The position numbers and the translations under genes were made by a program. Of a stretch of DNA of 64,000 nt, positions 37,118 through 59,431 are shown piece by piece. Each line of letters starts with the position of its first letter. The stretch's first letter is position 1. The notes below the pieces were generated by a model that saw only the letters and a program-made list of their open reading frames with translations, did not search any database and was not told the origin of the DNA. The DNA is from an uncultured Gemmatimonadales bacterium (GTDB taxonomy: Bacteria > Gemmatimonadota > Gemmatimonadetes > Longimicrobiales > RSA9): the NCBI GenBank assembly GCA_963741945.1, contig CAVUKA010000001.1:736001-800000 (forward strand), given 5' to 3'.

Positions 37118-37155
37118 GCCGCCAGGGCCGGAGGGGCCCGGGTCGCCTGCCTGTC

Positions 37156-37180
37156 GGGTTCTGTTTGCGGGAGTTGTTGG
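37156..37180 (+). repeat. solo copy of 25-bp IS1595-end-like motif
   Basis: GGGTTCTGTTTGCGGGAGTTGTTGG between convergent genes; 37151-37180 matches 46277-46306 at 29/30. Confidence 0.85.
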
Positions 37181-37199
37181 CTGGCCGCCCGCCCACCCG

Positions 37200-37703
37200 C
37201 TACGGCATCGGCAGCGCGCCCCCGCCGCCACGCCACGGGTCGAAGCCGAACGTGTAGTAGTCGCTCGGGCGGCCCGTCACCGCTTCCGCGGCCTCGCCGA
37301 GTCGCGCCACCGTGTCTCCGTCCTCGCCGGCACCTTCCGCCGCGGCCTGGATCGACACCAGCAGCTCGCGCACGTCATCCGGCCGAAGCAGCACGTACGA
37401 CCGAGGGTCCTCCGCCTCGCCGCGCCGGTGGACGACGAGCTCCACCTGGTCCGCGTCCGCCGAGAGCTTCCATACGTCGTTCGTTTTCTTCAGCAGCTTG
37501 TCCGACGTCTTCACCTCGGCGTGCACCGCCTTCACCAGGCGCTTCACGTCCACATCCGCGCCCTCGCCCCTGCGCGCGCCGAAGCGCTGCCCCAGCTCAC
37601 GCGGGTCGCTGTCCTCCGCCCGGGACACCGCCCGGTTCATTAGCCCGCCCACCTGGGCGTAGATCCCGACCACGAGCGGGACGGGGTCGATTACGATCCG
37701 CAT
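37200..37703 (-). CDS. hypothetical protein
   Basis: AGGAGA RBS, normal codon usage. Confidence 0.7.
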   Translation of the reverse strand: MRIVIDPVPLVVGIYAQVGGLMNRAVSRAEDSDPRELGQRFGARRGEGADVDVKRLVKAVHAEVKTSDKLLKKTNDVWKLSADADQVELVVHRRGEAEDPRSYVLLRPDDVRELLVSIQAAAEGAGEDGDTVARLGEAAEAVTGRPSDYYTFGFDPWRGGGGALPMP

Positions 37704-37977
37704 TGAGACTGTCTCCTTGTTCCGCTTCCATCATCCTTACGACGTCGACCGCCGGACCACGACCACCCCACTGAGGCCGCGCCACCACGGCCACTCCACA
37801 CCGGCCAGTCCCATTCATCGACCGTCCTGCGCCGGCCGCCCCACAGTCTGGCGGCCGACGCCTCGCTCGTCCAGGCAGCGGGGTGGCGCGCGGCACCCCG
37901 CCCGCTCATCTTTTCCTGCCGCCAGTGGGCCCGGACGCGCCGGTTCCGCCCCACGCAAGACTTCTGCAAGGAACAGC

Positions 37978-38418: not shown

Positions 38419-38427
38419 CCGCCCGCT

Positions 38428-38556
38428 GCGGCGGGGCCGGGCGGCGCGGAGCCGGGCGGCGGGGGGGCGGGCGGCGCGGGGCCGGGCGGCGCGGGGCCGG
38501 GCGGCGCGGGGCCGGGCGGCGCGGGGCCGGGCGGCGCGGGGCCGGGCGGCGCGGGG
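38428..38556. repeat. 15-bp tandem repeat (GCGGCGCGGGGCCGG), about 8 copies
   Basis: Five perfect copies at 38471-38545 plus degenerate flanking copies. Confidence 0.92.
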
Positions 38557-38591
38557 AAGTCGGCGAGGGGGAGGGCGGGTGGCCGCTCGCG

Positions 38592-38924: not shown

Positions 38925-38963
38925 ACGTCCCTCCGCTCTGCGGCGGCGGCCGTCCGGCCGCCC

Positions 38964-39305: not shown

Positions 39306-39353
39306 GTTTCCTCCGGCGCTGCGGCTTCCGCTCTCCCGCGTCCGCGGTTCGCG

Positions 39354-39632: not shown

Positions 39633-39647
39633 CGCCGCACCATCAGC

Positions 39648-39818: not shown

Positions 39819-40594
39819 GCTTCCGCCTCCGCGCGGAAGACGAGACTGCAGCACGTCACACCCGCCTCCGCTTTCTCGAGTTCCGATACATCCACTGAAA
39901 CCTGCCTGGAAACGCCCGCCGCGGCAATCCGGTCCGCGGTCCGCGGATGGCCTGCGGCCAGGAGCACGGCGTCGCCCACGCGCAGCACGTTGGCGGCGAC
40001 GGGCTCCCCCGCGGCCACCTCTACAACGCGCAGGTCGCGGAACGTGCGACGATCCACCCAGTCGGGGTTCAGCACCACCATGTCGTCCGCGGCGACCGAG
40101 ACGGCAGACTTCAGGTGCAGGCAGCCGCGCACCGGGACGCGCCTCACCTGGTACCCGAACGGCTCCAGCGTCTCCTGGAGCTGGCGCGCGCCCTCCAGGT
40201 CGGTCCGCTCCGACGCCCCCACGAACACGAGGTTTCCGACCACCAGCACGTCACCGCCATCGACACGCCCGGGGGCCTCGATGTGGCGAACGGTGCGGTG
40301 GCGCGCCAGCGCCTCCGCCACTCCTGTGACCTCCCCCCTCCGCGAAAGGGCGCCCGGCCGGGTCACGACGGCCACCTCGTCCACCACCACGGCCACATCC
40401 TCGACGAACACGCTGTCGGGGTGATCCGGCGCATCCGGCAGCCGCCGCACTTCACAGCCGAGATCGCGCAGCGCCCGTTCGTACGTCGCGTGCTGGGCGC
40501 GGGCGACCTCGAGGTCGATCGGCTCGCGGGGCAGGTGCGTCAGCTCGCACTCGGCGAGGCGCGGGCTCACCGCGCGCGTGTATGCGATCCACAT
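39815..40594 (-). CDS. dimethylargininase (DDAH / amidinotransferase family)
   Basis: PDSVFVED, SRRGE, DGGDVL, LHLKS, EKAEAGVTCCS. Confidence 0.92.
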   Translation of the reverse strand: MWIAYTRAVSPRLAECELTHLPREPIDLEVARAQHATYERALRDLGCEVRRLPDAPDHPDSVFVEDVAVVVDEVAVVTRPGALSRRGEVTGVAEALARHRTVRHIEAPGRVDGGDVLVVGNLVFVGASERTDLEGARQLQETLEPFGYQVRRVPVRGCLHLKSAVSVAADDMVVLNPDWVDRRTFRDLRVVEVAAGEPVAANVLRVGDAVLLAAGHPRTADRIAAAGVSRQVSVDVSELEKAEAGVTCCSLVFRAEAEA

Positions 40595-40620
40595 GGCTCC
40601 CTCCGCTTCCACGTCCGTGC

Positions 40621-41160
40621 TCATCCGCCAGCCGTTAAACGCGCGTCACCCAGCCGGTACACGCTGATGGTCGCGTCGCCCACACGGTGCCGCTCGGCGG
40701 AGCCGGGCAGATGATGGTCGGCGGCGTGCTCCACGGCCAGCACGGTCGCGAATGGGACATCGATCCAGCGCTCCACCAGCCGGTCCGTCTGGCGGGAGCC
40801 GTACGGCGGGTCGGCCAGCACCAGCTCGTAGGCGTGGGGAGAAAGCATGAACGCGAATCGGAGGGCATCGCGCTTGAACACCCGCGCCCGCGATTTCGCG
40901 CGCAGCGCGGCGACGTTCGCCTTCAGCGCGTGCAGCGTCGAGGGATTGTTCTCGACGAAGTCCACCGACGCGGCGCCGCGCGAAAGCGCCTCGAGCCCGA
41001 CGGCCCCCGTCCCGGCGTAGAGCTCCAGCACACGGGCGCCCGCCAGGTCCGGCTGCAGCAGCTCGACCCACCGGTCGCGCACCGCTTCCGCCGTCGGACG
41101 GACCCGTCCGGCCGGGGACGTGAGGTCCGTCCCCGCCCACTTCCCGGCAATGATCCTCAC
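40621..41160 (-). CDS. rsmD: RsmD family rRNA methyltransferase
   Basis: MRIIAG, RPT...VR, LYAGTGAVGLEALSRGA, DPPY. Confidence 0.85.
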   Translation of the reverse strand: MRIIAGKWAGTDLTSPAGRVRPTAEAVRDRWVELLQPDLAGARVLELYAGTGAVGLEALSRGAASVDFVENNPSTLHALKANVAALRAKSRARVFKRDALRFAFMLSPHAYELVLADPPYGSRQTDRLVERWIDVPFATVLAVEHAADHHLPGSAERHRVGDATISVYRLGDARLTAGG

Positions 41161-41519
41161 CGGGCGCGGAGCCCGTTGCGGTGCAGCGACAGCGCAGCTT
41201 CGAACCGCTCGCGCGCCTCCGCTTCCGTCTCACCTGTCGCCACGCAGCCGGGGAAGCCGTCGGCGTGTGCCGAAAAACCGGTCCGCGTCGCTTCGAGAAC
41301 AGGTGCGGCCTCCGCGTCCGGGTCCACCGGAGGCGCCGCCCCGGCCGCGCGCGAGCGGGCGGCATCGGCCGCCTGCGGGCCCAGCTCGTGGGTGTGCCCC
41401 ACCCAGACGGTGACCACGCCGGGCCTGTCCCCATGGACGTACTGGCGGCAGGCGCCTTCGGTGTCGCCCAGGTACCAGCCGTCGTCCTTCAAGCTCTTCA
41501 GCAGGTGTCGACCTTCCAT
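41157..41519 (-). CDS. HicA-like/HicB-like fusion protein
   Basis: N-half LKSLKDDGWYL...GACRQYVHGDRPGVVTV (HicA-like); C-half LEATRTGFSAHADGFPGCVATGETEAEARERFEAALSLH (HicB-like). Confidence 0.75.
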   Translation of the reverse strand: MEGRHLLKSLKDDGWYLGDTEGACRQYVHGDRPGVVTVWVGHTHELGPQAADAARSRAAGAAPPVDPDAEAAPVLEATRTGFSAHADGFPGCVATGETEAEARERFEAALSLHRNGLRAR

Positions 41520-41658
41520 GGTCCGGAATATAGGGGGGCGCCGCACCGATGGGCGAGCCCGGCGCGGCCGGCGGGGAGAGCGTCCGGGGGGCGGGAAGGC
41601 GCCGGGGTTGAAATGCGGGAAGCGGCCGGCGCAGACCGCCACCCGCCGGCAGCCGCGC

Positions 41659-43251
<1,593 letters not shown>

Positions 43252-43292
43252 AGCCCCGGATGGTCGCGGAAACGAAGCTCGAGATCAAGCCA

Positions 43293-44063
43293 TCAGTGGC
43301 CGCCGACCCGGACGCTCAGGCGCAGCGTGCTCGACACGGGGATGCCGTCGTGGAGGCGGGGTGCGTACTCCCAGTCGCGCGGAAATTCGATCAGGTACTG
43401 GTCGATGGTGTGATACCCCGTGGGGTGCGGCAGCTGCACGTCCATGACACGGCCCTGCTCGTCCAGGCTGATGAGCACATCGAAGCGGCGCCCCCGGTTC
43501 TCCAGGTACTCCACGTATTCCCGGCTGGTCAGCATCGGGAGGCGAATTCCCGGGAGGCGGCGCAACGGGTACGCGTCGCAGACCACCGACGGCAGCACGG
43601 CATCCAGGCGCCCGGCCACCAGCCGCAGCTGCACGCCCGAGCCCCCGCGCCAGTCCTCGACCAGCGACTCCTGCAGCAGGTGCACCAGCTCCGCCGTCTG
43701 GACCGGCGCCATGGTGCTGGACAGGACCCGGACCCAGTCCAGCCGGCCATCGTCCGCGTACCGCAACGACAGCAGCACCGTATCTCCGGGCGCATCGGCG
43801 GCGCCGCGGGCCCAGAGCGCGATGTTCCCGGCCGTCCCCGCTCGCGCCAGGTCGGTCAGCGCGGGCACTTCACCACGCCGGCCCACGTGATCACAGCGAC
43901 GTCCTGTCACACCCGGAACAGCAAAGCTCGCCGGTACCGGCTCCTGTTCCGGCCGCGGCCCACCCCCGCACGCGCTCGCCAGTGCCGGCAGGACCAGCAC
44001 CATCGTCGCCAACGGCGCGCGAAGACTGGCCGCGCGCCGAAGCCGTCGCCGGCTCCACTCCAT
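43293..44063 (-). CDS. lipoprotein with TonB C-terminal-like domain
   Basis: LASAC lipobox; ISLDEQGRVMDV...TG...ID...WEYAP...DGIPV; start uncertain. Confidence 0.6.
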   Translation of the reverse strand: MEWSRRRLRRAASLRAPLATMVLVLPALASACGGGPRPEQEPVPASFAVPGVTGRRCDHVGRRGEVPALTDLARAGTAGNIALWARGAADAPGDTVLLSLRYADDGRLDWVRVLSSTMAPVQTAELVHLLQESLVEDWRGGSGVQLRLVAGRLDAVLPSVVCDAYPLRRLPGIRLPMLTSREYVEYLENRGRRFDVLISLDEQGRVMDVQLPHPTGYHTIDQYLIEFPRDWEYAPRLHDGIPVSSTLRLSVRVGGH

Positions 44064-44165
44064 CGGTATCAATAGCATACAGTATGGTGGCGCACTGCGG
44101 GCCGCCGTTCAAGGCCGACGCCGCCCCACTCGACTCCGCTTTCCTGCGCCGCCACCACGAGCGGC

Positions 44166-44194
44166 TTGCGGCCACGCCCGTGCTGGACTACGCT
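44166..44194 (+). promoter_or_regulatory. sigma70-like promoter of cold-shock gene
   Basis: TTGCGG-N17-TACGCT, implying a ~110-nt 5' UTR. Confidence 0.45.
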
Positions 44195-44308
44195 GGATGC
44201 GCCGATCGCGGGACCCGGGGAACGGCTCCGGGGTCGCCGCGCGAAGCACGATCCTTGCGACGCTTCCCCGCGACAGTTCACCCACAGCCCACAGGTACAG
44301 AGCAAATC

Positions 44309-44527
44309 ATGGCGCGAGAGACCGGTACAGTCGTGCGATTCATGGACGACAAGGGTTACGGCTTCATCCAGCCCGACAAGGGCGGCAAGGACGTCTTCGT
44401 TCACCACTCCAGCATCGAGGGAAGCGGCTTCAAGTCCCTCGCGCAGGGCGAGCGGGTCGAGTACGAGCTGGTGCAGGATCCGAAGGGTCCGCGGGCAGAG
44501 AACGTCGTCCGAGTGGAAGAGGGCTAA
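44309..44527 (+). CDS. cold-shock protein
   Basis: KGYGFI, DVFVHHS, GFKSL, KGPRAENV. Confidence 0.95.
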   Translation: MARETGTVVRFMDDKGYGFIQPDKGGKDVFVHHSSIEGSGFKSLAQGERVEYELVQDPKGPRAENVVRVEEG

Positions 44528-44586
44528 GCTTACAGCCCCGGGCCTGCCTCCGACGTCGGCAGGCCACTTCATCCGCTTCCGCTTTC

Positions 44587-44623
44587 CTCACGGGCACGCG
44601 CAGGGGATGCGTGTGCCCGTGAG
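44587..44623 (+). terminator. 16-bp stem hairpin downstream of csp
   Basis: CTCACGGGCACGCGCA-GGGGA-TGCGTGTGCCCGTGAG. Confidence 0.5.
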
Positions 44624-44733
44624 CGACGTCTGTTCTGCCCGCCCATGGGAGCCGGATGCGGTGGGAGCGCCGGGGCCCCGCCCTCGGTGATGGTGCTCGC
44701 CGCGGCCCGGTCGGCTGGCTAGAATCCCGCCCC

Positions 44734-46053
44734 ATGCCGAATCGGATCCGCACCTCCCTTGGCCGCGCCTTCCGCGCGCTCCGGCGACGAAACTACAGGC
44801 TGCTGTTCGTCGGTCAGGCCATCTCCCTGACGGGGACGTGGATGCAGCAGCTGGCGTTGAGCTGGCTGGTCTATCGGCTGACCGGCTCCGCCTTCTTCCT
44901 CGGGCTGGTGGCGTTCGCGGGCCAGTTGCCCGGGTTCGTCATTGCCCCGCTGGCCGGGGTGCTGGCGGACCGGTGGAACCGTCACCGCATCGTGATGACC
45001 ACGCAGAGCCTCGGAATGGTGCAGGCCGTGGCCATTACGGTCCTGGTCCTCGGCGGCTGGGTCCAGGTCTGGCACATCGTGGCGCTGGCAGCATTGCTCG
45101 GCGTGGTCACGGGCGTGGACATACCGGCGCGCCAGGCGCTGTTCGTCGACCTCGTCGAAGGCGACCGCGAAGACCTCGCCAATGCCATCGCGCTGAACTC
45201 CTCCCTGTTCAATGCGACCCGCCTGATCGGTCCATCGCTTGGCGGCTTCCTCATCGCCGAGCTGGGGGAAGGTCCGGTCTTCGCGATCAATGCGGTCAGC
45301 TATGTGGCCGTGATCGCGAGCCTCGCCGCCATGCGGCTGCCCCCGCTGGTGCCGGGGGCCGCCACGGGGAGCGTGCTGGAGCGCCTGCGCGAGGGCTTCG
45401 GCTACGCCGCCGAGTTCCAGCCCATACGGGCGTTGCTCCTACATCTCGGCGCCGTGGCGCTCGTGGGTATGCCGTACGTGGTACTGCTCCCCGTTTTCGC
45501 CGACACTGTGCTCGGCGGCGGTGCACGCACCCTCGGGTTGCTCATGTCCGGCGCGGGGCTGGGGGCGCTCATCGGCGCGCTCTGGCTGGCGACGCGGCCC
45601 AGCGTGCGCGGCTTGAGCCTCGTCATCACCGTCGCCGCAGCCGTGTTCGGTGTGGGGCTGGTCTGCTTTTCTGCCAGTCGCGCGCTCCCGCTGTCCATGG
45701 CGCTCCTCGTGGTCACGGGCGGCGGAATGATGGTCATGTCCGCGTCCACCAACACCGTCCTCCAGACTGTGGTGCCGCCCGCTCTCCGCGGCCGCGTCAT
45801 GAGCCTTTACACCATGGCATTCATGGGCATGGGGACGATAGGCTCTCTCGCGGCCGGCTGGCTCGCGACGCGCTTTGGCGCACCGCCCACCGTGGCACTC
45901 GGAGGCCTCGGCTGCATCGCCGCCGCAGCCTGGTTCGCCCGACAACGCGCCGCGCTGCGGGACCATGTCCGTCCCATCTACCGGGAGCTCGGCATCATAC
46001 CCGAAGTCGCTTCCGGCCTCCTCAACGCGAGCGAGTTGCGAACGCGAGGCTGA
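44734..46053 (+). CDS. MFS transporter (MFS_3/EntS-like)
   Basis: GQAISLTGTWMQ, GVLADRWNR, NAIALNS, LRGRVMS. Confidence 0.9.
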   Translation: MPNRIRTSLGRAFRALRRRNYRLLFVGQAISLTGTWMQQLALSWLVYRLTGSAFFLGLVAFAGQLPGFVIAPLAGVLADRWNRHRIVMTTQSLGMVQAVAITVLVLGGWVQVWHIVALAALLGVVTGVDIPARQALFVDLVEGDREDLANAIALNSSLFNATRLIGPSLGGFLIAELGEGPVFAINAVSYVAVIASLAAMRLPPLVPGAATGSVLERLREGFGYAAEFQPIRALLLHLGAVALVGMPYVVLLPVFADTVLGGGARTLGLLMSGAGLGALIGALWLATRPSVRGLSLVITVAAAVFGVGLVCFSASRALPLSMALLVVTGGGMMVMSASTNTVLQTVVPPALRGRVMSLYTMAFMGMGTIGSLAAGWLATRFGAPPTVALGGLGCIAAAAWFARQRAALRDHVRPIYRELGIIPEVASGLLNASELRTRG

Positions 46054-46281
46054 CGGCCGGGAGCGACGCCCCCGATACCGGACGTTCCGCGGCGATGATC
46101 GGCCCCCAGCGCATCGCAGGAGCGGCCGGGTGCGGCCGGCGAGGCACGGTGCGGCCGGCGAGGCCAAGTGTGGCCGACAAAGTCCGGTGCGGTCTGTCGG
46201 TACGAAGGACGACGAGGGTGCAAGCACAGCCCCCGGGCGAGCGGCCGCGCTGTCGCGCTCTCCGGAGGCCACCAGGCTGTC

Positions 46282-47694
46282 GGGTTCTGTTTGCAGGAGT
46301 TGTTGGACCCCTCTTCCGATGATCTCCCATGAGCCTGTGCGGTGGGGTTCTGTTGGCGGGCATTGTTGGGATCACACGACGCGGTCTGCCGCCCCACGCT
46401 CGCAGCACGGAGGAGAATGTCCCCCCTAGCCATGGAAGTGCCCGGCGCGGCGAGGCACAGTGCTCCCCATGGCGCACCGCCCACCCCTTTCCTCACGGAG
46501 CATCCGTGCCGAGCCAGGCACGATCCGACGATGCGCACCAATGCCGCCGTTGGTGCCAACGCCGCACCGCGCTGTCAATCGGCCGCGCTGCGATCTCTTC
46601 CCGCAGCTGCGGCTGCAGTCGATCCCATTCCCGTTCAATGAGTTTCGCCGGACCGCCTTCGGCCATCGACGGCCCTGCCCCCGCTGCGGCGGGATCCGCG
46701 TATACGGGTGGGGCGGATTCCGCGGACGTCGTCGCTTTCGCTGTGTCGCATGCGGCCGCACATTCAGCGACTTCACCGGCACGCCGCTCCAACACCTGAA
46801 ACGCCTGGACCGCTGGCTCCCCTTCTGCGCTGTGTTCGGCATGGGACTGACCGTCCGTCGCACAGCCAGCCTCCTGGGCATCGACCCGACGACATCGTTT
46901 CGCTGGCGACACCGCCTCCTCGGCCCCGTCGTCGCCAGCGAGCATTATCCGCTCTCCGGGTTCGTGGATTGGGGCGATGCCTGGTTCACGTTCTCCGAGA
47001 AGGGCAGCCGAAGGCTCGATCGCCCGGCGAGGCGGCGGGCGCCACCTTTCTGGAGCGGCGGCGAGCCGCGCACATACGTGCTCCTGGCCAACGACAGCCA
47101 GGGGCGCGCCGTTGGGCGGCACGTTGGAGCGCGGCGGCCGGGGCGGACCACGGTGCTGGAGCTCGTGATCCCGCGCGTTGCGCCGGGTACTACGCTGCTC
47201 ACCGAGTGCGGACCGTTCGGGGACGGCGCCCGCATCGCCCGGCTCACGGGATTGCCCTGGCGCTGGCGACGCAAGCTCGATCGCGCCACCGCCCCATCCC
47301 TCGAGCCGCTCCGGGTCTACACCTCCCGCCTGAAACGGTGGATGCGGCCATTTCACGGGGTCGCGACGCGCTACCTCGATCACTACCTCGGGTGGTTCAG
47401 GCTCGTCGACGGTCCGCTCGTTGAAGCCGGCGACCCGGTCCCGGCGGCGCTCATCCTGTCCTCCGGCCGCTTCCCCTGACCTGCCGGCAGGGTCCTCGGC
47501 GGCGGATGCCGGATCCGAGGATTGGAGGGCGGCCAGAGGGGTTCAGGTCGCCCGCCAGGCACGCCAGCAGGTTGGATCGGCCGCCAGCGTCGGGGTCCAG
47601 GCCGCGCACCCCACAATTCCCGCGAACAGAACCCCATGGGGCTGATCGCCGACGCTGCCCCACTGCCCCAACAACTCCCGCCAACAGAACCCCA
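46282..47694. mobile_element. IS1595 (ISPna2-like) derived element with doubled inverted ends
   Basis: Motif copies at 46282-46306 and 46345-46369 (+), 47610-47634 and 47668-47692 (-); 46343-46370 vs 47667-47694 match 26/28; no target duplication seen. Confidence 0.75.
46541..47479 (+). CDS. IS1595-family transposase homolog, catalytic residues apparently lost
   Basis: Zn ribbon CPRC...CVACGRTF, TGTPL, HTH TSFRWRHRLL, SRLKRWMRPFHGVATRYLDHYLGWF; start uncertain. Confidence 0.82.
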   Translation: MPPLVPTPHRAVNRPRCDLFPQLRLQSIPFPFNEFRRTAFGHRRPCPRCGGIRVYGWGGFRGRRRFRCVACGRTFSDFTGTPLQHLKRLDRWLPFCAVFGMGLTVRRTASLLGIDPTTSFRWRHRLLGPVVASEHYPLSGFVDWGDAWFTFSEKGSRRLDRPARRRAPPFWSGGEPRTYVLLANDSQGRAVGRHVGARRPGRTTVLELVIPRVAPGTTLLTECGPFGDGARIARLTGLPWRWRRKLDRATAPSLEPLRVYTSRLKRWMRPFHGVATRYLDHYLGWFRLVDGPLVEAGDPVPAALILSSGRFP

Positions 47695-47837
47695 GTGAAT
47701 CGAGGGGTTGGCCTCCACCTCCGCTGGGCTTAGGGTGCGATATCATGAGTGCCCGGGGCGGATCGCCGGGGGCCCGCGTCTGGTCGCCGAGCTGGCAGGC
47801 GCGGCGATATCCCAACGCTCGGAGGAGAAACCGAACG

Positions 47838-48032
47838 ATGGCGGAGATCGAGTACGAACGCGAGAACGAGCGCGTGGTCATTGCCAGGCAGGATGGTGAG
47901 GAGGTCGCCCGGATCGTAGAGGTCCCCGGCACGAACGTGACGAGCTTCCGCATGAAGGATGGCAGCAAGCGCGGCGATCGGGTGGCCGACCTGGAGGAGG
48001 CCAAGAAGCGGATCGAGAGCTACCTCAGCTGA
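47838..48032 (+). CDS. small hypothetical protein (64 aa)
   Basis: GGAGGAG RBS, strongly biased codon usage, hairpin after stop. Confidence 0.7.
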   Translation: MAEIEYERENERVVIARQDGEEVARIVEVPGTNVTSFRMKDGSKRGDRVADLEEAKKRIESYLS

Positions 48033-48036
48033 CCGG

Positions 48037-48070
48037 AGTCACGGGCCCCCGAGCCTCGGGGGCCAGACTC
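48037..48070. terminator. hairpin between convergent genes
   Basis: GAGTC..GGCCCCCGAG/CTCGGGGGCC..GACTC. Confidence 0.5.
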
Positions 48071-48088
48071 GCCCCTGACGACGGCGGC

Positions 48089-48718
48089 TCAGGCAACTTC
48101 CGGCGTGATGATGTCGACCGCGCGCCAGCAGTACCAGGCGACGGCGCTCCTCCACGGCCGATAGCCGACCCCGATCCATTCCATCTCTTTCGGCGCCGGC
48201 GGCGCTTCCAGCCCCAGCACGCGGGCCATCCCGGCACGCACACCCAGATCGCCCACGGGCCATACGTCCGGGCGCCGGAGATCGAATAGCAGGTACATCT
48301 GGGCGGTCCATGGCCCAATGCCGCGAACACGCGTAAGCCTGGCGACCACTTCAGCGTCCGTGAGATCGTCCAGGTCACCGAGCGGTACGTCGCCGGAAAG
48401 CGACCGGGCGGCCAGGTCCTGGATCGCCGCGGCTTTCGCCCCGGACAGTCCGGCGGCGCGCAGCACTCCGTCGCCCGCGCCCAGCACGGACTCCGGCGAA
48501 ACGTCGCCGTCGAGCGCCGAGACGAAGCGGCCGTGGACGGTGCGCGCGGCCGCGCCAGCCAACTGCTGATACACGATCGCCGCCGACAGCGACTGGAACG
48601 CGTCACCCCTGGGCGGCCGCAGCCGAACCGGTCCCACCCGCTCCACCAGCGGACCGAATCCGGGATCCCCGCGCAGTCGCTCTGTCGCCTCCGGCCAGAC
48701 CGTCACCTCTTCATTCAT
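48089..48718 (-). CDS. DNA-3-methyladenine glycosylase II family (AlkA-like)
   Basis: IVYQQL, GLSGAK, VRGIGPWTA (HhH), PVGDLGV, PWRS. Confidence 0.92.
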   Translation of the reverse strand: MNEEVTVWPEATERLRGDPGFGPLVERVGPVRLRPPRGDAFQSLSAAIVYQQLAGAAARTVHGRFVSALDGDVSPESVLGAGDGVLRAAGLSGAKAAAIQDLAARSLSGDVPLGDLDDLTDAEVVARLTRVRGIGPWTAQMYLLFDLRRPDVWPVGDLGVRAGMARVLGLEAPPAPKEMEWIGVGYRPWRSAVAWYCWRAVDIITPEVA

Positions 48719-48905
48719 CCGGCGCCTTTCGTTCACTCGGCGTCCCATCGGGGGCCGAAAATGAAGCCGAGTGGACCCGGTCGCAACGGCCCCACGCCAG
48801 ACCGGCGGGGGAGAGCCGCGGGATCCCGAGGCGTTTGCCGCCGATCTCCCCTGCCCGCATCTTCCACGCTCCAACTGAACGATCCGAGACTTTTCGAGAG
48901 GAATC

Positions 48906-51164: not shown

Positions 51165-51251
51165 CATCGACGCGACGCGGAAGGGGGCGTCCGGTGGGCG
51201 GCGGCCGGGCGCCCTCCCGCGCTCGACGGCTTCGCATCAGCAGGAGGTGGG

Positions 51252-51845
51252 ATGGACGACACGAAAGGGCGATCGGTCCCGACTCGCGGGATCGAGGTCT
51301 GGCTCCCCGAGTGGGTGCACGAAGCCATGCCGGCGGCGGGCGTCCTCGAGTCTGTCGAGGACCGCATGCGCCTGGTGATCGAGCTGTCGCGTGAGAACGT
51401 GCTCCGCCGCGAGGGAGGCCCGTTCGCGGCAGCCGTATTCGAACGAGACACGGGTCGGCTGGTCAGTGTGGGGTTGAACAGCGTCGAGCGACTGAGGAAC
51501 TCCGCGCTCCACGCCGAGATGACGGCCCTCATGTTCGCGCAGCAGCGCCTTGGTGTGTTCACGCTTGCGGCAGAGGGCCTGCCGGCGCACGAGCTGGTGT
51601 CCTCGTGCGCCCCATGCGCCATGTGCCTGGGCGCCGTTCTGTGGAGCGGCGTGCGGAGGCTGGTTTGGGGCGCGGGGCGTGAAGATGCCCTCCGGATCCA
51701 GTTCGACGAGGGCCCGGTCTTTCCGGAGTCCATCCGCTACGTGGAGGAGCGAGGCGTCGAGATGATGCCGCACGTTCTGCGCGAGGAAGCCCGCGCGGTC
51801 CTGCAGCTCTATGCCGGGCGTGGCGGGCTCATCTACAACGGGTAG
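51252..51845 (+). CDS. nucleoside deaminase (CDA/TadA/guanine deaminase fold)
   Basis: GGPFAA, HAE, PCAMC. Confidence 0.9.
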   Translation: MDDTKGRSVPTRGIEVWLPEWVHEAMPAAGVLESVEDRMRLVIELSRENVLRREGGPFAAAVFERDTGRLVSVGLNSVERLRNSALHAEMTALMFAQQRLGVFTLAAEGLPAHELVSSCAPCAMCLGAVLWSGVRRLVWGAGREDALRIQFDEGPVFPESIRYVEERGVEMMPHVLREEARAVLQLYAGRGGLIYNG

Positions 51846-51862
51846 ACCGGGGCGCGCGCCCG

Positions 51863-51948
51863 GCGCTCTGTTCGCGGGAGTTGTTGGACACGCGCGCTCC
51901 GAGGTCGGACACGGCCGGCGGCGGGGCGCTGTTCGCGGGAGTTGTTGG
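51863..51948 (+). repeat. tandem pair of the 25-bp IS1595-end-like motif
   Basis: GCGCTCTGTTCGCGGGAGTTGTTGG (51863-51887) and GGGCGCTGTTCGCGGGAGTTGTTGG (51924-51948), 36-nt spacer. Confidence 0.88.
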
Positions 51949-51964
51949 GCCACCCATCACCCCC

Positions 51965-52711
51965 TCACGGCGCCACCGCTCCGTAAAGCCGCGGCAGATC
52001 CTGCACCGTCACGATTCCCAGCAGTTTCTCCGATGACGCGCCGGTGGACGTGACGAGCACCGCCTCCAGCCGCCGGCCGCGCGCCGGCGCTTCCGTGAAC
52101 AGTCGCACCACGTCCGCCACCAGGCGGTCGCGCGACACGAGGTCGAAGCGCTTCACCCCGTTCCCGAACTCCAGGACCTCCCGCACGGGCTCCTCGTGAA
52201 GGGTGTCAAGCGGCCCGGCCAGCTTCGTGGCGATCCAGCGCGCAATGGCATGGGCGGTGAGCAGGCCGATCAGCTCGTCGCCGGCGTACACGGGCAGTCG
52301 CGTGAACCCGCCCTTCACCATCCGCTCCGCGGCTTCCCCGATCGGGTCCTCCGCCGAGCAGGTCACCACCGGTCGGGACATGGCCTCGTCGATCCGAGGG
52401 GGGTGGACGAGCAGGGCGACGATGGCGTCGAGCCGCTCCACCGTCGCACCGTGCGGCTCCGCGATCACGTACCCGCCGCCCCTGTCGTGGACGATGGCGT
52501 TCCGCAGGTCGGCGAACTCCAGCAGGTCCTCTTCGACCGCCCGCACGACGACGTTGCGTTTCGCCGCCTGCCTCACCATCCAGCGGAACGAGTCCTTGGA
52601 CGACGTCCCCAGCATCCGCTTCAACGCGTCTTCCGCCTGTGCGAACGCGATCAGGAATCGATCAGAATTCGTCTCGGCCACGGCCCCCTCACCGTCGGTT
52701 TCGGCAATCAC
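51965..52711 (-). CDS. CBS domain protein
   Basis: LRNAIVH N-terminal motif, FTRLPV...GLLT, LLGIVTVQDL. Confidence 0.85.
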   Translation of the reverse strand: MIAETDGEGAVAETNSDRFLIAFAQAEDALKRMLGTSSKDSFRWMVRQAAKRNVVVRAVEEDLLEFADLRNAIVHDRGGGYVIAEPHGATVERLDAIVALLVHPPRIDEAMSRPVVTCSAEDPIGEAAERMVKGGFTRLPVYAGDELIGLLTAHAIARWIATKLAGPLDTLHEEPVREVLEFGNGVKRFDLVSRDRLVADVVRLFTEAPARGRRLEAVLVTSTGASSEKLLGIVTVQDLPRLYGAVAP

Positions 52712-52742
52712 GGCCGCAACATACGACGCCCGACGCCGTCGG

Positions 52743-53537
52743 TCACGGCAGCTTCAAGCCCACCCACTCGGCTGGGCCGGCAGTGGCGGGGGCGACGAGG
52801 AGGACCACGCGCCCACCCCGGAACGCCGGCCGAAGCCGATTCCCCAGCTGGACGACGCCGCGACGCACCGCTGCCCCCGTCGCAAGGACCCGGACCTCGT
52901 CGACGCCGCGGGCCCGGATCTCGGCCACCGTGTGGAGACCGCCGAACGGGTCCGGCCAGGGCCAGCCGCGACGATGGACGACGCGCCCATCGTCGCCAGT
53001 GAGGCGGAGCCCGGCGGCGGCGAGCGCACCGATGACGCCATCCTCGGTGCCGCCGAGCCCTTCCAGCTCGAGCCCGAGCTGTCGGGCCAGGCGGCGGGCT
53101 TCAGCCTGGGGGACCGGCTCGCGTTGGCAGCGGCGACCGAACGCGACGAGCGGACAGGGGACCGGCGGGGCGGGATCGGGCGGCGCAGCCAACAACTCCC
53201 GCGAACAGAGCTCGACGGGGGCCACCACCACCCCCGGATCGCTGCCCTCAGGCGCGAACTCCCGGATGGCGTTCCGGAGGAACTCCATGAGCACGGCCGG
53301 CAGTGGGGCCTCCAGCGTCCGACGGTGCTCCCCCGTCGCGGTCACGTCGATGGACGCTGCCCCGTTCTGGCTGGTGAAGGGGATGCGTGGATCCTTGAGC
53401 AGCTGGTGGCGGAGGACGATGTCGGCTTCGAACCCCGCCGGCAGAGTCTCGGCAATGCTGCGCGCCAGCTGGTTTGTCCCCGGCGCCCCGATGATGTCGG
53501 TGTCGTCGAGCCCGATGATCAGCTTCCGGCTAATCAA
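52743..53537 (-). CDS. TiaS (tRNA-Ile2 agmatinylcytidine synthetase) N-terminal-like protein
   Basis: IIGLDDTD...[35 protein letters not shown] start overlapping upstream stop. Confidence 0.7.
53189..53213 (-). repeat. 25-bp motif copy inside coding sequence
   Basis: CCAACAACTCCCGCGAACAGAGCTC, read as ELCSRELL. Confidence 0.85.
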
Positions 53538-54483
53538 TGGGTTTGAGCCCTGCGAGGATCGCCTCCCGTCGTGGCTCGAGGAAAGGCGGAAGCACGACCT
53601 TCTCGCCCAGCGTATCAGGGCTCTCGTCCACGGCGAAGCCGGGGCCGTCCGTCGCGATCTCGAAGAGGACGCCGTTGGGCTCACGAAAATACAGGCTGCG
53701 GAACCAGAAACGGTCCACGGGCCCGGAGTTGGGAACGCCCATCTCCCCCAACCGCCCGACCCACTGCTCGTACTCCTGCGTGTCCGGGGTGCGGAACGCC
53801 ACGTGGTGCACGCCGCCCGCGCCTTGCCGGGACGGGGGGAGGTCGGGCTGGACGGCCACGTGGAGCTCGCCCTGCGGGCCGTCGGCGCCCATCCGAAACA
53901 CGTGGACGCCGGCGGGTCCATGGATCTCGTCCGCGTAATCCCGCGCCAGCTCCATGCCGAGCACCTGCGTCAGCAGGACATTGGTGGGCTGGAGCGTTGG
54001 CGCGCTCATGACGATCGGCCCGAGCCCCCGGATCTGGTGCTCCGCGGGCACCGGGCAGCCGTCCCAGTACGCGGGCGCATCGCCGGCGCCGCCGTCGTCC
54101 ACCAGCGAGAGCCGCTGCCCTTCGGGGTCGTCGAAGTCCATGGTCGCGCGGCCGTCCCGCTCCACGATGTCGCCGTGGATCACACCGCTGCGGTCCAGGT
54201 GCTCGAGCCACCACTCGAGCGATTCGGCGCCGTCCACCCGCATGTGCGTTCGGACGAGGCTGCGCGTGCCGCGGCGCTCCCGGGGCACCGGCCAGTCGAA
54301 GAAGGTGATGTCCGTACCGGGATTCCCACGGCCGTCGGCGTAGAAGAGGTGGTAGGCGGACACGTCGTCCTGATTCACGCTCCGCTTCACCAGGCGGAGG
54401 CCGAGGACTCGCGTGTAGAAGCGATAGTTCTCCCGGACGTCTGCGGTGATGGCCGTGAGGTGGTGGACGCCGCGCAGCTCCAT
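53530..54483 (-). CDS. ring-cleaving dioxygenase (MhqO-like, VOC fold)
   Basis: [57 protein letters not shown]. Confidence 0.92.
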
Positions 54484-54499
54484 GGCGATGCTCTCCGTG

Positions 54500-55123
54500 T
54501 CAGGGGCTCGGGGGCGGACGCCTGCCGCCCGGGGGGTCGCGGAGCTGGAACCAGGCGAGCGCACTGATCCCGCCGGCAACCAGCCCGGCGGCAGCATAGG
54601 TCCAGACCGCCTGGGAAAGCCAGAGCGTGAAGGGGCGGGGGCCGGCCAGCCCGCCCACCCCGACCGCCTTGGTCACCGCCCGCACCAGGAACGCGAGCGT
54701 GTTGGCGGCCCCACCGCCGAGAAGGAAGGCCAGGTGGAGGCGGGCACCGTGTCGTCCGTACCGGAGGGCGAGGTCGAGCAGCGGTCCCGTGGCCAGCAGG
54801 CTCGTGAGGGCGCCCGGTCCGGGGAACGCAAAGCCCATGAGACCGAAGCCGGCGAGCCCGGCGGCGGCCCCCATCCCCATGGCCGTGCCCGCCGCCCGTC
54901 GCGGGACGAGGGCGAAGCCGAAGGCCATCGGGAAAACGGCGAAGACAATGTGGTGTCCGGGAATCCGGAGCCCGAGATCCACGAACATGGTCAACGCCGC
55001 CGCGATGATCCCGAGGCCCACGAGCGCGGTGAGCTCGACGGCCCGCACACGAGCGCCCCCCGCGAGCGTCGGGACGCGGGACTGTCCGCGCAACGCGTCA
55101 TCGACGGTCAAGACGTACGGCAT
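54500..55123 (-). CDS. integral membrane protein, ECF S-component-like
   Basis: About 6 TM segments, LRIPGH motif; family assignment tentative. Confidence 0.55.
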
Positions 55124-55136
55124 CGCTTCTCCGTTC

Positions 55137-57176
55137 TCACCAGCCCAGCCGCGCGCCGAGGAAGAGCGTGCGGGTCGCCTGGGGCGAGCCGTATTCCTCC
55201 TCGTACGCGACGTCGAACAGGTTGTCGGCGCCCGCGTAGACCTCCGCCCGCGTCCCGGGCAGGTTCTGCGCCAGCTGCACGCCGATGATGGTGTAGTCCG
55301 GCAACTTCCCCTTCTCGACCGGCTCCTGACGCGAATAGTAATACTGCCCGGCCACGTGCAGCCCTGTCGCGGTGGCCTTCAGTCCGAACGGGAACGTGTA
55401 GCGCGTCTCGAGCGTCGCCCGGTGGCTTGGACGGTACTGCAGCTCCTGCCGCTCCGCACCGGCCGACAGGTCCACCGCGTCCATGAACGTGTAGCCGCCG
55501 CGGACGACCAGCGCGTCCACCGGCCTTGCCTCCGCCGACAGCTCCACGCCCGTGAACCGGTAGCGCTGGAAGTTGGCGAACGGCTCGTCGCGGGACGGCC
55601 GCTCGATATAGTCGCGGACCGTCATGCGGAAGAGGGTCACGTCCACGGCCCCCGCCTCCATCTCGTGCCTCGCCCCCGCTTCCACCACCTCCGCGCGCTC
55701 CGTCGTCAGCGACGCGTTCCCCGCCTCCTCGTCGTAGAGCTGGCGGATGGTGGGGAACCGGAACTTCCGGGCGGCGGCGACGCGCAGCCGCGTGCGCCGG
55801 GAGGCATCGAAGCTGAGCGCGCCCATGTACCCGTCCGCGCCGGACATCCGCTTCTCGCCGGCGATGGTATCGGCCGCAGCGTCGCGCCGCATCCAGTGAT
55901 GCATGTACCCGGCGACGAGCCCCACCCTCGCAGTGGGGCGCAGCTGGTACTCCAGCGCCATGCCATAGCGGGCGAGCGCCCGCTCGTCGGTGTAGCCGCG
56001 CACATCCCAGGCCCGGTCCCGTCCCGAGCCGACCGCAACATCCCGCACGCGGAGGTCCACGCTCCACGCGTCTCGCTCGGCGGACAGCGCCAGAGCGAGT
56101 CGTCCGATAGCCCCGCTGGCCGTGACGGCCTGGACCCCCACTCCCGTCAGCCGCGTCCGCGACCGCGAGTCGTAGGTCCCGCGCGCGTTCACGTCCGACA
56201 TGGCGCTGTACGTGGAGTCGTCGTAGCGCGCCTCGTGCAGCGCCAGCCCATTAAGGTACGCCCACGAGCGCAGCCGCGGCCCGGCGGCCGCGCCCAGCGA
56301 CGCGGCGAGCTGGGCGAACCCGTCATCACGCCCTTCGACCCGCTCGAACGTGGGATTCCGGGCGAACGGGTCGGAGCGGTCCGTCACCACGCCTGGCGGG
56401 ATCCCGTACCCGCCGTGCCCGAGTCCGGCCGTGAGTCCCAGGTCCAGGTCGCTCCGCGGCGACGCCGTGACCAGCACCATTCCCGACACCCGCTCTCTGT
56501 CGCTGTTCGCCCGCTCCGCCGCGCTCCCCGCCGGCCCGACCGTCGGAGAGCCGACCACGGATGGGAAGCCGTCGACCGACGATGCGCTCCCCGAAACGAA
56601 CGCCGACACCGCGCCGCCCCCTCCGCCCGCACGCATGGAAGCCAGCCGGCCGCGCACGTCTCGCACTTCGCCCCTGGCTTCACCGGAGAAGCCACGGCCA
56701 CCGGAGCGCGTGATGATGTTGATCGTGCCCGCCAGACCCCCTTCGCCGTACAGCACGGACCCGGTGCCCGTGGTCACCTTGATGCGCGCGATCTCTTCCG
56801 CCGGAATGAACGCCGGGTCGAACTGGCCGTCGTAGGTCGAGTTCAGCGGAATCCCGTTCAGCAGTAACAGAACGTGCCTCGAGCGAAGCCCCCGCAGGTC
56901 CACCCGCGGCACACCCTGGCCGCCCGTGCGGATGTTCATCCCCGGCACCAGCACCAGCGCCTCGTCCAGCGTGCGGGCGCCGATCGCCTCAATCTCCTGA
57001 GCCGTGATGACGCGCACGGTGGCGGCCGCTTCCGAGACCGGCCGATCCACGCTGGCGACGATCTCCCCCATGTCGTACGCGGGCGGAGCCGGCTCCTGGG
57101 CGCTCACGCCGCCTTCCGCGGCGGTCAGCACGGCGAGAAGGGGGGCGACAGCGACAGCAGGCCAACGAGCTCTCAC
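55137..57176 (-). CDS. TonB-dependent receptor
   Basis: VITAQEIE..GARTLDEAL..VPG, LRG, LLLNGIP plug; NLFD..Y...RTLFLGARLGW C-terminus. Confidence 0.92.
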   Translation of the reverse strand: MRARWPAVAVAPLLAVLTAAEGGVSAQEPAPPAYDMGEIVASVDRPVSEAAATVRVITAQEIEAIGARTLDEALVLVPGMNIRTGGQGVPRVDLRGLRSRHVLLLLNGIPLNSTYDGQFDPAFIPAEEIARIKVTTGTGSVLYGEGGLAGTINIITRSGGRGFSGEARGEVRDVRGRLASMRAGGGGGAVSAFVSGSASSVDGFPSVVGSPTVGPAGSAAERANSDRERVSGMVLVTASPRSDLDLGLTAGLGHGGYGIPPGVVTDRSDPFARNPTFERVEGRDDGFAQLAASLGAAAGPRLRSWAYLNGLALHEARYDDSTYSAMSDVNARGTYDSRSRTRLTGVGVQAVTASGAIGRLALALSAERDAWSVDLRVRDVAVGSGRDRAWDVRGYTDERALARYGMALEYQLRPTARVGLVAGYMHHWMRRDAAADTIAGEKRMSGADGYMGALSFDASRRTRLRVAAARKFRFPTIRQLYDEEAGNASLTTERAEVVEAGARHEMEAGAVDVTLFRMTVRDYIERPSRDEPFANFQRYRFTGVELSAEARPVDALVVRGGYTFMDAVDLSAGAERQELQYRPSHRATLETRYTFPFGLKATATGLHVAGQYYYSRQEPVEKGKLPDYTIIGVQLAQNLPGTRAEVYAGADNLFDVAYEEEYGSPQATRTLFLGARLGW

Positions 57177-57339
57177 GGGCGGCGCTCCAGGGCGGCAGGA
57201 TCAGGACAGTCATGAAGAGCAGGCGAGCGCACGCCTGTCAATGCGCCTCGCCGTCCGCGGGACGCGCGCAAGACTGGCGCCTCGTCGCGGCGTCGGCTAG
57301 GCTCTCGCCAATGCCCAGTCGAACATCGGGGAGGTGGCC

Positions 57340-58023
57340 TTGAGCGCGGAACCAGCCGGCGAGAAGGCCCGGCGGGAGATGACGTTTCTGCTGGCCGGGC
57401 CGGAACGGCGGGTGCTCGTCGCCATGGCTCGCCGTCTCCCGCCGTGGCTCACTTCGGACCACCTCACGATCATCGGCGTGTTTGGCGCCGTCGGCGTCGC
57501 CGCCGGGTACGCCCTGTCCGGGCGCGGCCCCGGCTGGCTCTGGCTCGCCACGGGGATGCTGGTGGTCAACTGGTTCGGCGACAGTCTGGATGGCACCGTC
57601 GCCCGGGTCCGCCATTGCGAGCGCCCCAAGTACGGCTACTACATCGACCACGCCGTCGATGCGCTCACCACCGCCCTCATTGCCGGCGGCATCGGCTTCT
57701 CCCCGTTCGTCTCGCTCTGGGTCTCACTCCTGGTGGTGATCGTCTATCTGATGCTCTCCATCAACGTCTACCTGGAGTCCGCCGTCTACGGAGTGTTCAA
57801 CATCTCGTACGGCATCTTCGGACCCACGGAGGGACGCATCGTGCTGGCCGTCGTGAACACCGCGCTCTACTTCGCCGTGCTCAACGGCCTGTCGGCGACC
57901 GCGATCCAGCCCGTCGCCGACCCCGTGGTCAGCGCCGGCGTTGGCGTGATGTTCCTCATGCTCGTGGTTCGCTTCGCCCGCAACCTCCGTGTCCTCGGCG
58001 CCCGCGAGCCACTCGAGCGATAG
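57340..58023 (+). CDS. CDP-alcohol phosphatidyltransferase family protein
   Basis: GDSLDGTVAR...YGYYIDHAVD, GPTEGR; TTG start chosen by RBS. Confidence 0.9.
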   Translation: MSAEPAGEKARREMTFLLAGPERRVLVAMARRLPPWLTSDHLTIIGVFGAVGVAAGYALSGRGPGWLWLATGMLVVNWFGDSLDGTVARVRHCERPKYGYYIDHAVDALTTALIAGGIGFSPFVSLWVSLLVVIVYLMLSINVYLESAVYGVFNISYGIFGPTEGRIVLAVVNTALYFAVLNGLSATAIQPVADPVVSAGVGVMFLMLVVRFARNLRVLGAREPLER

Positions 58024-58132
58024 GCAGGCGCGCGAGGAGCCGAGCCCCGGCGGTCGCGGCCGGGACCGACCGTCGCGCTGCCGCGACCGGTGGCCGATAT
58101 TGAGCGGCACCACAGTCGAGCGGAGAGAGCAC

Positions 58133-59212
58133 ATGAGCGATGGGAGAATGGGGCAGGCGGGCGACGGCGAAGGCGCAGGGGGCGCCGCCAACAATTCCCG
58201 CGAACAGAACCCCAGTGATCTGGGCCGCCGCGCGTTTGTGCGGGCGGCTGCTGGCGCGGCGGCGACACTGACCGGCGCCGGCCTGCTGTCCGCGCCGCTA
58301 CTGGGCGCCAGCACCAGCCGCGGGCGCCGCGCCGCCGGCCACCGTCCCCCGGCGCTCGCGCCCGAGCCGTGGGGCAGTCTCGTCCCCGTCGCCGAAGACG
58401 CCTGGGCAGTGATCTCGACGCCGCTGGCGTCCGGCCCCGAAGCCCGGCGCACGGTGTGCAACGGCGGGCTGGTCGCCGGCAAGGACGCGGTGCTCGCGAT
58501 CGAGGGGTTCGCCTCGCCCGCCGGCGCCACGTGGCTCGCGGCGGAAGCTGAGCGGCTGGTCGGCCGTCCCCCCACGCATGTCGTGCTGACACATTACCAC
58601 GCCGATCATACGGGCGGCACCGTGGGCTACGTCCGCGACGGCGCGCCGCCCACGATGCTCGCGACCGAGACCACTCGCCGCCTGACGGCCCGGCACGAGG
58701 CCGAGCTGCGCGATGGCGCCAGGGCCGCTCCGCCGGTGCTGCTCCCCGACCACCTGATCCCGGATCAGGGCGATCCCGTCGAGCTCGACCTGGGCGGCCG
58801 GCACGTCCGGCTCGTGGGGCGCGCGGGGCACACGCCCAGCGATCTGGTGGTCGAGCTCGGCGACGCCCCCGTGATCTTCACGGGAGACCTGGTCTGGATC
58901 GGCATGTTCCCGAACTACGTGGACGCCATCCCCTCCCTGCTCTCCCGCAACGTGCGGGCGTTGCGCGCGCAGAACGCCGAGACCTACGTCTCCGGCCACG
59001 GGACGCTGGGCACGCCCGCAGATCTCGACCGCTACATCGCCCTGCTGGACCATGTCGAGACCGCAGCCCGCCGTGCCGTCGACGCCGGCCTCCCCGTAGA
59101 ACAGGCCGCGGCCGATTATACGATCCCGGCGTCGCTCGGGTCGTGGCACATGTTCTCCCCGCGCTACGCCGAGATGGCGTTCAGGGCCTGGGCCCGGGAG
59201 CTGGCGGACTAG
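58133..59212 (+). CDS. Tat-exported MBL-fold metallo-hydrolase
   Basis: GRRAFV twin-arginine, THYHADH, GHTPSD, TGDL, SGHG. Confidence 0.88.
   Translation: MSDGRMGQAGDGEGAGGAANNSREQNPSDLGRRAFVRAAAGAAATLTGAGLLSAPLLGASTSRGRRAAGHRPPALAPEPWGSLVPVAEDAWAVISTPLASGPEARRTVCNGGLVAGKDAVLAIEGFASPAGATWLAAEAERLVGRPPTHVVLTHYHADHTGGTVGYVRDGAPPTMLATETTRRLTARHEAELRDGARAAPPVLLPDHLIPDQGDPVELDLGGRHVRLVGRAGHTPSDLVVELGDAPVIFTGDLVWIGMFPNYVDAIPSLLSRNVRALRAQNAETYVSGHGTLGTPADLDRYIALLDHVETAARRAVDAGLPVEQAAADYTIPASLGSWHMFSPRYAEMAFRAWARELAD
58188..58212 (-). repeat. 25-bp motif copy within the 5' end of the MBL gene
   Basis: CCAACAATTCCCGCGAACAGAACCC followed by CAGTGA as at 47693. Confidence 0.85.
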
Positions 59213-59431
59213 GCGCGTAAGCCGCGCCCCGACCCATGCCGCCCGTCCTCACCCGCCCCGTCGCGGCGGCGCCGGCGAGGCTGGCCGCGTCCGGCGCGGT
59301 GGCCCGGCCGGCGGCACCGACTGCCGCGGCGGCCGCCCCTCGCAAGCCGGCTTCGCCCGTTCCGGTACCGCGCGCCCCGGCCGCCGCCGCTTCCCGCCTG
59401 GTCCTCTTCCCATTCCGCACCCCTCCCGCTG

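Follow-up and report, generated by a model that had tools for sequence, protein, structure and literature searches.

IS1595-type transposase homologs lacking the catalytic triad and their associated end-like sites in an uncultured Gemmatimonadales bacterium

Introduction

Insertion sequences (IS) of the IS1595 family, such as those of Janthinobacterium, Nitrosomonas, Pseudomonas and relatives in the Bacillota, carry a transposase gene between inverted ends, the protein having a zinc (Zn) ribbon, a helix-turn-helix (HTH) and the PF12762/NF033547 layout, and they duplicate 8 bp of their target. To our knowledge, few bacterial transposases have been retained in a new role that involves no cutting, and the standard example, the transposases associated with repetitive extragenic palindromic (REP) sequences, or RAYTs, involves a different enzyme: RAYTs are domesticated transposases of the IS200/IS605 (HUH-Y1) type. 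Among eukaryotes, SETMAR is a domesticated DDE transposase that still binds its old ends, those of Hsmar1 and MADE1. The literature that we found on domestication or catalytic inactivity in IS1595 consists of work on eukaryotes or ciliates and of surveys, among which we know of no prokaryotic case. Here we describe a 25-bp motif and a transposase-like gene of the IS1595 type in a 64,000-nucleotide stretch (hereafter the window; positions 736001 to 800000 of contig C1, CAVUKA010000001.1) from an uncultured Gemmatimonadales bacterium (assembly GCA_963741945.1, hereafter G000; 4.09 Mb, 70% GC, eight contigs, 96.7% complete).

We lean towards reading this motif as the recognition site, derived from IS1595 ends, of a protein that descends from a transposase and has ceased to cut, most of the dispersed copies probably being tolerated passengers. 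Like REP/REPIN–RAYT systems, the locus combines a low-copy, transposase-derived gene flanked by inverted short repeats with singlets and inverted doublets of the repeat elsewhere, and the variants of gene and repeat correspond one to one. Unlike a RAYT, the protein encoded in the window has a DDE, RNase-H-like fold (its family matches are to IS1595 and IS1) rather than an HUH-Y1 fold, and it has lost its catalytic residues, which RAYTs keep; the analogy with RAYT and REP drawn in a preliminary description of the window holds for the layout but fails for the type of enzyme and, as counted below, for scale. As in the case of SETMAR, a transposase-derived DNA-binding module has been kept alongside scattered sites derived from ends, but here the case is bacterial and IS1595-derived, the protein has no fused domain and all three catalytic residues are gone. 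If the protein binds the sites, the locus would be a compact case of a transposase and its ends becoming a DNA-binding protein and its sites, and it poses the puzzle of where new copies of the site come from without the chemistry of the enzyme or an intact relative in the assembly. In annotation pipelines, genes of this kind receive the label ‘IS1595 family transposase’, which is probably misleading for this clade.

Results and discussion

Two small sets of sites, each around one gene

At up to three mismatches the consensus GGGTTCTGTTCGCGGGAGTTGTTGG occurs exactly nine times in the window (Table 1), at every position and on every strand given in the preliminary description, and not once in any of 100 dinucleotide-preserving shuffles. 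The unit conserved among copies is about 30 bp long, roughly -4 to +26, with generally no extended similarity beyond it, and copies are frequently arranged as doublets with a spacing of 58–63 bp. At up to four mismatches the genome contains 12 copies, 88–96% identical to the consensus and all on contig C1 between 773156 and 889674 (a span of 116 kb), the three beyond the nine lying at the window-equivalent position 73252 and in an inverted pair at 153592/153650. A degenerate core, CTGT-N3-C-N-GGA-N2-TGT-N-G, has 19 matches in the genome (11 on C1 and eight on contig C3) and none in the reversed genome used as a control. The eight sites on C3 represent a second variant, GGTTTCTGTCACCGGGAACTGTTGG, found within 618–688 kb of that contig (a span of 70 kb), and all eight form inverted pairs with their tips outward, 58, 59, 233 and 522 bp apart. 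Each of the two sets surrounds its own transposase-homolog gene. Because both sets are small and each is clustered around its own gene, we do not regard the motif as a genome-wide family; the dispersed REP-like family that had been proposed comes down, in the genome-wide count, to 12 plus eight copies, unlike REP sequences, which number tens to hundreds genome-wide.

Five tips-outward pairs of 83–547 bp are present in the genome (one of the window variant, four of the second), none of them inside the window, and the earlier statement that the copies do not form MITE-like inverted pairs is thus correct for the window and incorrect for the genome. These pairs are like miniature inverted-repeat transposable elements (MITEs) in being short non-coding units bounded by the inverted repeats of a parent, but unlike MITEs they have no target duplication, no shared interior and no intact cognate transposase in the assembly. 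The interiors and spacers of the site pairs are mutually unrelated, and among all 20 sites only the pair 37156/73252 exceeds the shuffle maximum for homology of the flanks. Target duplications are lacking, as had been noted: the eight bases outside 46282 differ from those outside 47692, the same applies to the inner pair of sites, and none was seen at the site pairs elsewhere in the genome. In tests of hairpin formation only the inverted pairs score well (z -3.1 and -11.4), an inevitable outcome for such pairs; a solo site and a direct doublet do not (z +1.2 and +1.2).

Three other identities for the sites were set aside. No GC-skew switch was seen near the cluster on either contig, which speaks against sites of a replication origin or terminus; no Rfam family matches at gathering score within 36000–60000; and a promoter or terminator role at the element is not indicated by its promoter-like (none) and terminator-like (one) sites, which are no more numerous than in shuffles.

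A transposase homolog without its catalytic triad

The gene flanked by the sites has a host-like third-position GC content. Its product scores below the Pfam cut-offs for PF12762 (23 bits, cut-off 27) and PF12760 (19.8, cut-off 25.4) and barely passes NCBIfam NF033547 (76.4, cut-off 75), for which active relatives score 186–198 and its paralog fails with 37.5. This paralog, at 645595–646413 on contig C3, is 44–46% identical, adjoins one of the variant site pairs and is the only other homolog in the assembly: six active-type queries match only the C1 and C3 loci, no intact homolog and no near-identical copy of the gene was found in the assembly, and PF12762 has no match above its cut-off anywhere in it.

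In the window protein, the columns of the catalytic D, D and N are occupied by G, E and R, and none of the three residues is conserved in this protein and nine loci of the Gemmatimonadota type. The D-D-N triad is intact in 19 of 21 active-type relatives versus one of the 121 top homologs of the window protein, and that one (P0095) groups with a Janthinobacterium IS. Across the clade the residues that prevail in the three catalytic columns are G/H/A, R/G/A and R; the Zn ribbon, the HTH sequence FRWRH, SEKG and GVATRYL..YL.W are invariant or nearly so, and the only near-invariant acidic residue, D75, sits in the DNA-binding part. In a quick IQ-TREE phylogeny of 50 rows a single branch (SH-aLRT 100, length 0.91) separates the intact sequences from the others, with deep branches on the dead side, and at least 381 database proteins match the window protein at E <= 0.001. 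An AlphaFold2 model built from 120 sequences (pLDDT 86, pTM 0.83) has its best PDB matches in Mos1, ISCth4, the PFV and HIV integrases and Sleeping Beauty; the homodimer prediction (median score 0.33 versus a mark of 0.42) weighs neither for nor against. The gene belongs to a deep, Gemmatimonadota-type clade that has kept the Zn ribbon, the HTH and an integrase-like fold and has lost all three catalytic residues. Judged by its residues and predicted fold, the gene between the sites encodes a transposase homolog that is catalytically dead, the fold kept and the chemistry gone; this agrees with the preliminary description, and 120 of the 121 clade members lack the triad.

Active relatives and the origin of the motif

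Our scan of species-representative genomes yielded 522 confirmed relatives, of which 80 were kept. Several copies per genome occur in Janthinobacterium, Nitrosomonas mobilis, Pseudomonas taeanensis and an alphaproteobacterial metagenome-assembled genome, among others, and comparison from copy to copy delimited elements of 1031–1068 bp in Janthinobacterium, Pseudomonas and the alphaproteobacterial genome, with GGCTCTGTCAtCGG, GGCTCTGTCCGCG or GGCTCTGTTCGCG as their ends. One of the Janthinobacterium copies (L017) has an 8-bp flanking duplication, ATAAAAAA, on both sides. The catalytic motifs of the multi-copy relatives contain D (GIVEaDETYF), D (LLvTDG) and N (HIQNVNaY.SRLK), and the window protein is 27–38% identical to these active relatives. 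Since the delimited ends of the relatives resemble the motif, the latter is homologous to the terminal repeats of IS1595-type elements (GGCTCTGT(T/C)... versus (G)GG(T/C)TCTGTT...) and, as far as sequence comparison goes, is derived from IS1595-type transposon ends. A derivation from transposon ends had been proposed before, and the active relatives ending in GGCTCTGTTCGCG bear it out; the accompanying assignment to the ISPna2 group is probably not right, as the D-D-N of these relatives is what we take to be the mark of the IS1595 subgroup.

The window element thus shares with IS of the IS1595 family the layout of its protein, a gene between inverted ends and the homology of those ends. It differs from them in having lost D-D-N, in ends that are doubled or arrayed rather than single, and in having no 8-bp duplication, no near-identical copies and a host-like third-position GC content.

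Among the active relatives, Pseudomonas taeanensis contig_12 carries two 100%-identical 1031-bp copies (L052 and L054) about 12 kb apart, inverted and with their flanks swapped, an arrangement pointing to either a composite transposon or an inversion between the two.

Protein and site occur together and vary together

We compared 41 related genomes, our own included, in tallies that take in one unpublished genome (G017). The protein is present in 15 of them, namely our own and 14 of the 24 others in the same family, and in none of the 16 from two sister families. All 11 genomes with two or more matches to the core pattern are protein-positive, a co-occurrence of the kind that the preliminary description had suggested looking for, and the 26 protein-negative genomes have either no match (24 genomes) or one (two genomes). 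Four protein-positive genomes have fewer than two matches, and the three of these in which variant sites were inspected (G001, G009 and G010, the fourth being G018) have such sites beside the gene.

In nearly all loci inspected (L006–L009, L087–L089, L092, L094–L096) the sites upstream of the gene are on the (+) strand and those downstream on the (-) strand, and some genes have whole arrays in steps of 50–60 bp, with 4 + 1 sites upstream and downstream in L006, 3 + 3 in L007 and 3 + 4 in L088. Close opposite-strand pairs without a gene point their tips outward in 14 of 14 cases in the relatives (13 by the core pattern, one of them in G017, plus one variant pair), at spacings of 42–518 bp. Each paralog is paired with its own motif variant, and this, together with the co-occurrence, makes recognition of the site by the protein the natural reading.

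One gene and its site pair are conserved in a same-genus genome

The paralog on contig C3 occupies the same locus in G001, a genome of the same genus, between flanks that are 78–84% identical. Their proteins are 53% identical, with a non-synonymous divergence (dN) of 0.42, a synonymous divergence (dS) of 1.4 and a dN/dS of 0.30 (Nei-Gojobori), a ratio that is only rough because dS is near saturation; six neighbouring gene pairs have dN/dS values of 0.05–0.22 at a dS of 0.6–0.8. Both arms of the inverted site pair upstream of the paralog have been kept between the two genomes, at 19 of 21 bases, in surrounding DNA that cannot be aligned, and a 2-nt difference (CACCGGG versus CAGAGGG) is mirrored in both arms and in every other site of each genome (8/8 and 5/5). 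The hallmark of domestication, catalysis lost with the DNA-binding part and the fold kept under purifying selection, is seen here, its dN/dS being that of the orthologous pair of the paralog. As to a fixed orthologous locus, the evidence is divided: the C3 paralog has one, and the window gene is absent at the syntenic place in G001. The latter genome also has three identical sites in true 58-bp tandem units (G001:C1:624252-624388; L102 4252–4388), 11 kb from the paralog locus and just upstream of the start of a FAD-oxidoreductase-like gene, and the corresponding region of G000 is without an array.

Proposed mechanism and evidence that weighs against it

The firm findings are the end-derived sites, the clade-wide loss of the triad, the cognate pairing of protein and site, the local clustering and one conserved gene with its operator-like pair of sites; binding, the pairing of sites, autoregulation and the way in which new copies are made are inferred. 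In the mechanism that we propose, the protein would bind the ~30-bp sites through its Zn-ribbon/HTH part, and the dead catalytic domain may pair them as in the paired-end complex of a transposase, without cleavage. The sites that flank the gene itself, doubled and inverted, could then provide autoregulation or looping. The other copies, be they solo, in direct doublets with a spacing of about 60 bp or in inverted doublets, would be copies of the ends that arose near the gene and are turning over between species.

Several observations weigh against this reading. Contig C2 of G001 is syntenic to window 40500–60400 at 75–80% identity, but the segment 44584–47786, which holds an MFS_3 transporter gene and the element, is missing from it without a remnant; in its place is 1 kb (G001:C2:640541-641540) with a different, ~0.75-kb membrane-protein-like gene on the other strand. 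This variable slot lies between conserved genes, and the L049 slot holds a homolog that is 33% identical. G001 also lacks the ~107-bp segment holding the doublet 51863/51924, the ~80 nt holding 37156 (where the orthologous gap is 4 nt), a motif at the equivalent of 73252 and exactly 30 bp, in frame, that hold 58188 in the N-region of a twin-arginine (Tat) signal peptide. All five locations compared (37156, 51863/51924, 58188, 73252 and the element) are thus absent at the orthologous places, so that the copies have the character of DNA that was gained or lost. A sixth copy, at 53189, lies in a variable protein linker where no clean indel could be drawn against G001. Among 24 other genomes, only the more distant G019 has an ortholog of the window's CBS gene at E <= 1e-30 (44% identity), and the core pattern has no match on that contig.

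The paralog, moreover, evolves 2–10 times faster at non-synonymous positions than its neighbours, the gene is patchy in the family (14/24) with one to four very divergent copies per genome, which resembles the dynamics of mobile elements, and in the related genome G013 the sites are spread over two contigs without clustering. Half of the six loci that are remote from the gene fall in convergent gaps, where there is no promoter to regulate. Finally, the likeness of 37156 and 73252 points to recent copying, which a dead enzyme leaves unexplained. Both of these solo sites in convergent gaps (37118–37200; C1 ~809150–809300, L002 4150–4360) belong to a larger module in which a GC-rich hairpin precedes the site and a C-rich tail follows it, the tail reaching as far as the stop codon of the convergent gene downstream and being rich in G-runs on its opposite strand. 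The two agree at 24 of 25 positions of the core and at 18 of 19 of the tail, and their upstream GC hairpins are similar; as the C-rich tail is absent from other copies, they look like a recent copy of a ~90-nt module, which is not a transposase-defined end.

Alternative explanations

A rather unlikely alternative is ordinary IS debris, that is, a decaying or repressor-type gene with solo ends and internally deleted MITE-like remnants, moved by an active IS1595-type transposase that is or lately was present elsewhere in the population. Such an origin would account for the copies absent at orthologous places in the same-genus genome, for close opposite-strand pairs that invariably have their tips outward and are never reversed, for copies in tolerated places (convergent gaps, a signal-peptide N-region, a protein linker), for the patchy distribution of the gene and for the apparently recent duplication of 37156 and 73252. 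The preliminary description had itself named remnants of ordinary IS or MITE insertions with an active transposase elsewhere as what would contradict it, and the five MITE-like pairs resemble such remnants, but an intact homolog is absent from the assembly. In addition, the site variant in each set is the one that flanks the resident dead gene and not that of a foreign element, target duplications are absent while an active relative has 8 bp, and the interiors and spacers of the pairs are mutually unrelated. The dead clade is also old, diverse and full-length, lacks the triad almost throughout, has a dN/dS of 0.3 and keeps one locus, and decaying copies would not last so.

We also think it rather unlikely that a DDE lineage lost its triad once, long ago, and that its sites are still being copied nearby and are co-evolving with the genes, in what would be a REPIN/RAYT-like arrangement built on a dead enzyme, the sites being copied by non-DDE means or the dead protein standing guard by occupying the ends of invading active relatives.

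Still less probable, in our judgement, is a reading in line with that of the preliminary description, in which the dispersed copies are functional binding sites for the dead transposase (for example nucleoid-organising, insulating or regulatory), REP/RAYT-like and of benefit to the host. Their identity to the consensus is far above that of neutral DNA of the same age (synonymous divergence from the sister species 0.6–0.8), several genomes repeat a spacing of ~58–63 bp, whether in doublets, direct or inverted, or in arrays, the sites are clustered around the gene, and protein and site variants are paired. However, recent copying explains the similarity of the copies equally well, pairs in different genomes are spaced anywhere between 42 and 518 bp, the sister species shares none of the five window locations compared, the sites number just 12 plus eight and have no relation to a GC-skew switch, and the neighbouring genes have unrelated housekeeping functions. 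Convergent gaps, tolerant linkers, absence from the sister species and the lack of a link with GC skew are no less to be expected of tolerated copies than of useful ones. As an account of the dispersed copies, tolerated passengers do better than a regulon, and most of these copies are probably passengers of the non-cutting, site-binding protein that we favour.

That the element is still autonomously mobile and cuts with non-canonical residues is very improbable: gene and inverted ends are retained almost throughout the clade, there are signs of recent copying and D141/D144, E220 and E255 adjoin the canonical positions in the window copy, but these acidic residues are not conserved and the paralog has none of them, the near-invariant D75 belongs to the DNA-binding part, the genome has no near-identical gene copies (its two are 44–46% identical), and target duplications are absent.

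Settings of the individual copies

Table 1. Motif copies and the transposase homolog in the window (positions in the window)
Feature	Position	Strand	Remarks
Solo site, type 1	37156..37180	+	Between convergent genes; in ~80-90-nt module common to the 73252 copy
Outer left site L1 of gene-flanking set	46282..46306	+	Consensus match
Inner left site L2, 63 bp from L1	46345..46369	+	Consensus match
IS1595-type transposase homolog, no D-D-N triad	46541..47479	+	312 aa (ATG 46541); Zn ribbon, HTH, RNase-H-like fold
Inner right site R2	47610..47634	-	Consensus match
Outer right site R1, 58 bp from R2	47668..47692	-	Consensus match
Direct doublet, first site	51863..51887	+	Between convergent deaminase gene and CBS gene
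Direct doublet, second site, 61 bp from first	51924..51948	+	Consensus match
Site in reading frame of TiaS-TCKD-like gene	53189..53213	-	Variable linker
Site in N-terminal coding region of metallo-beta-lactamase-fold gene	58188..58212	-	Precedes twin-arginine motif

Two loci in the window, 37156 and the doublet 51863/51924, are in gaps between convergent genes, as had been reported. Two further copies lie within coding sequence. The copy at 53189 is hosted by an open reading frame at 52743–53530 (-) whose start region reads ‘IGLDDTD’ and whose product weakly resembles the TCKD domain of TiaS (E 0.009); this frame is conserved in G001 except for the low-complexity linker that carries the motif here. 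The copy at 58188 lies in the gene at 58100–59212 (+) for a metallo-beta-lactamase-fold protein with a Tat signal, and it adds 10 codons to the N-region of that protein relative to the same-genus genome.

In two places, 46345 to 47610 and 51924 to 53189, an inner (+) site is followed by the next (-) site at a distance of exactly 1265 bp. We considered the doublet cluster as a second copy of the element on account of this equal distance and rejected it, as the interiors are unrelated (the transposase-like gene in one, the CBS gene and part of the TiaS-like gene in the other) and the doublet cluster holds conserved host genes; we take the equality to be a coincidence.

The neighbouring genes in the window are ordinary, encoding RF3, an RNase D-like protein, DPP-IV, a deaminase, a CBS protein, a glyoxalase and a TonB receptor, among others. 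A 15-bp tandem repeat, GCGGGGCCGGGCGGC, is present at 38431–38556 in 8.4 copies with a 94% match.

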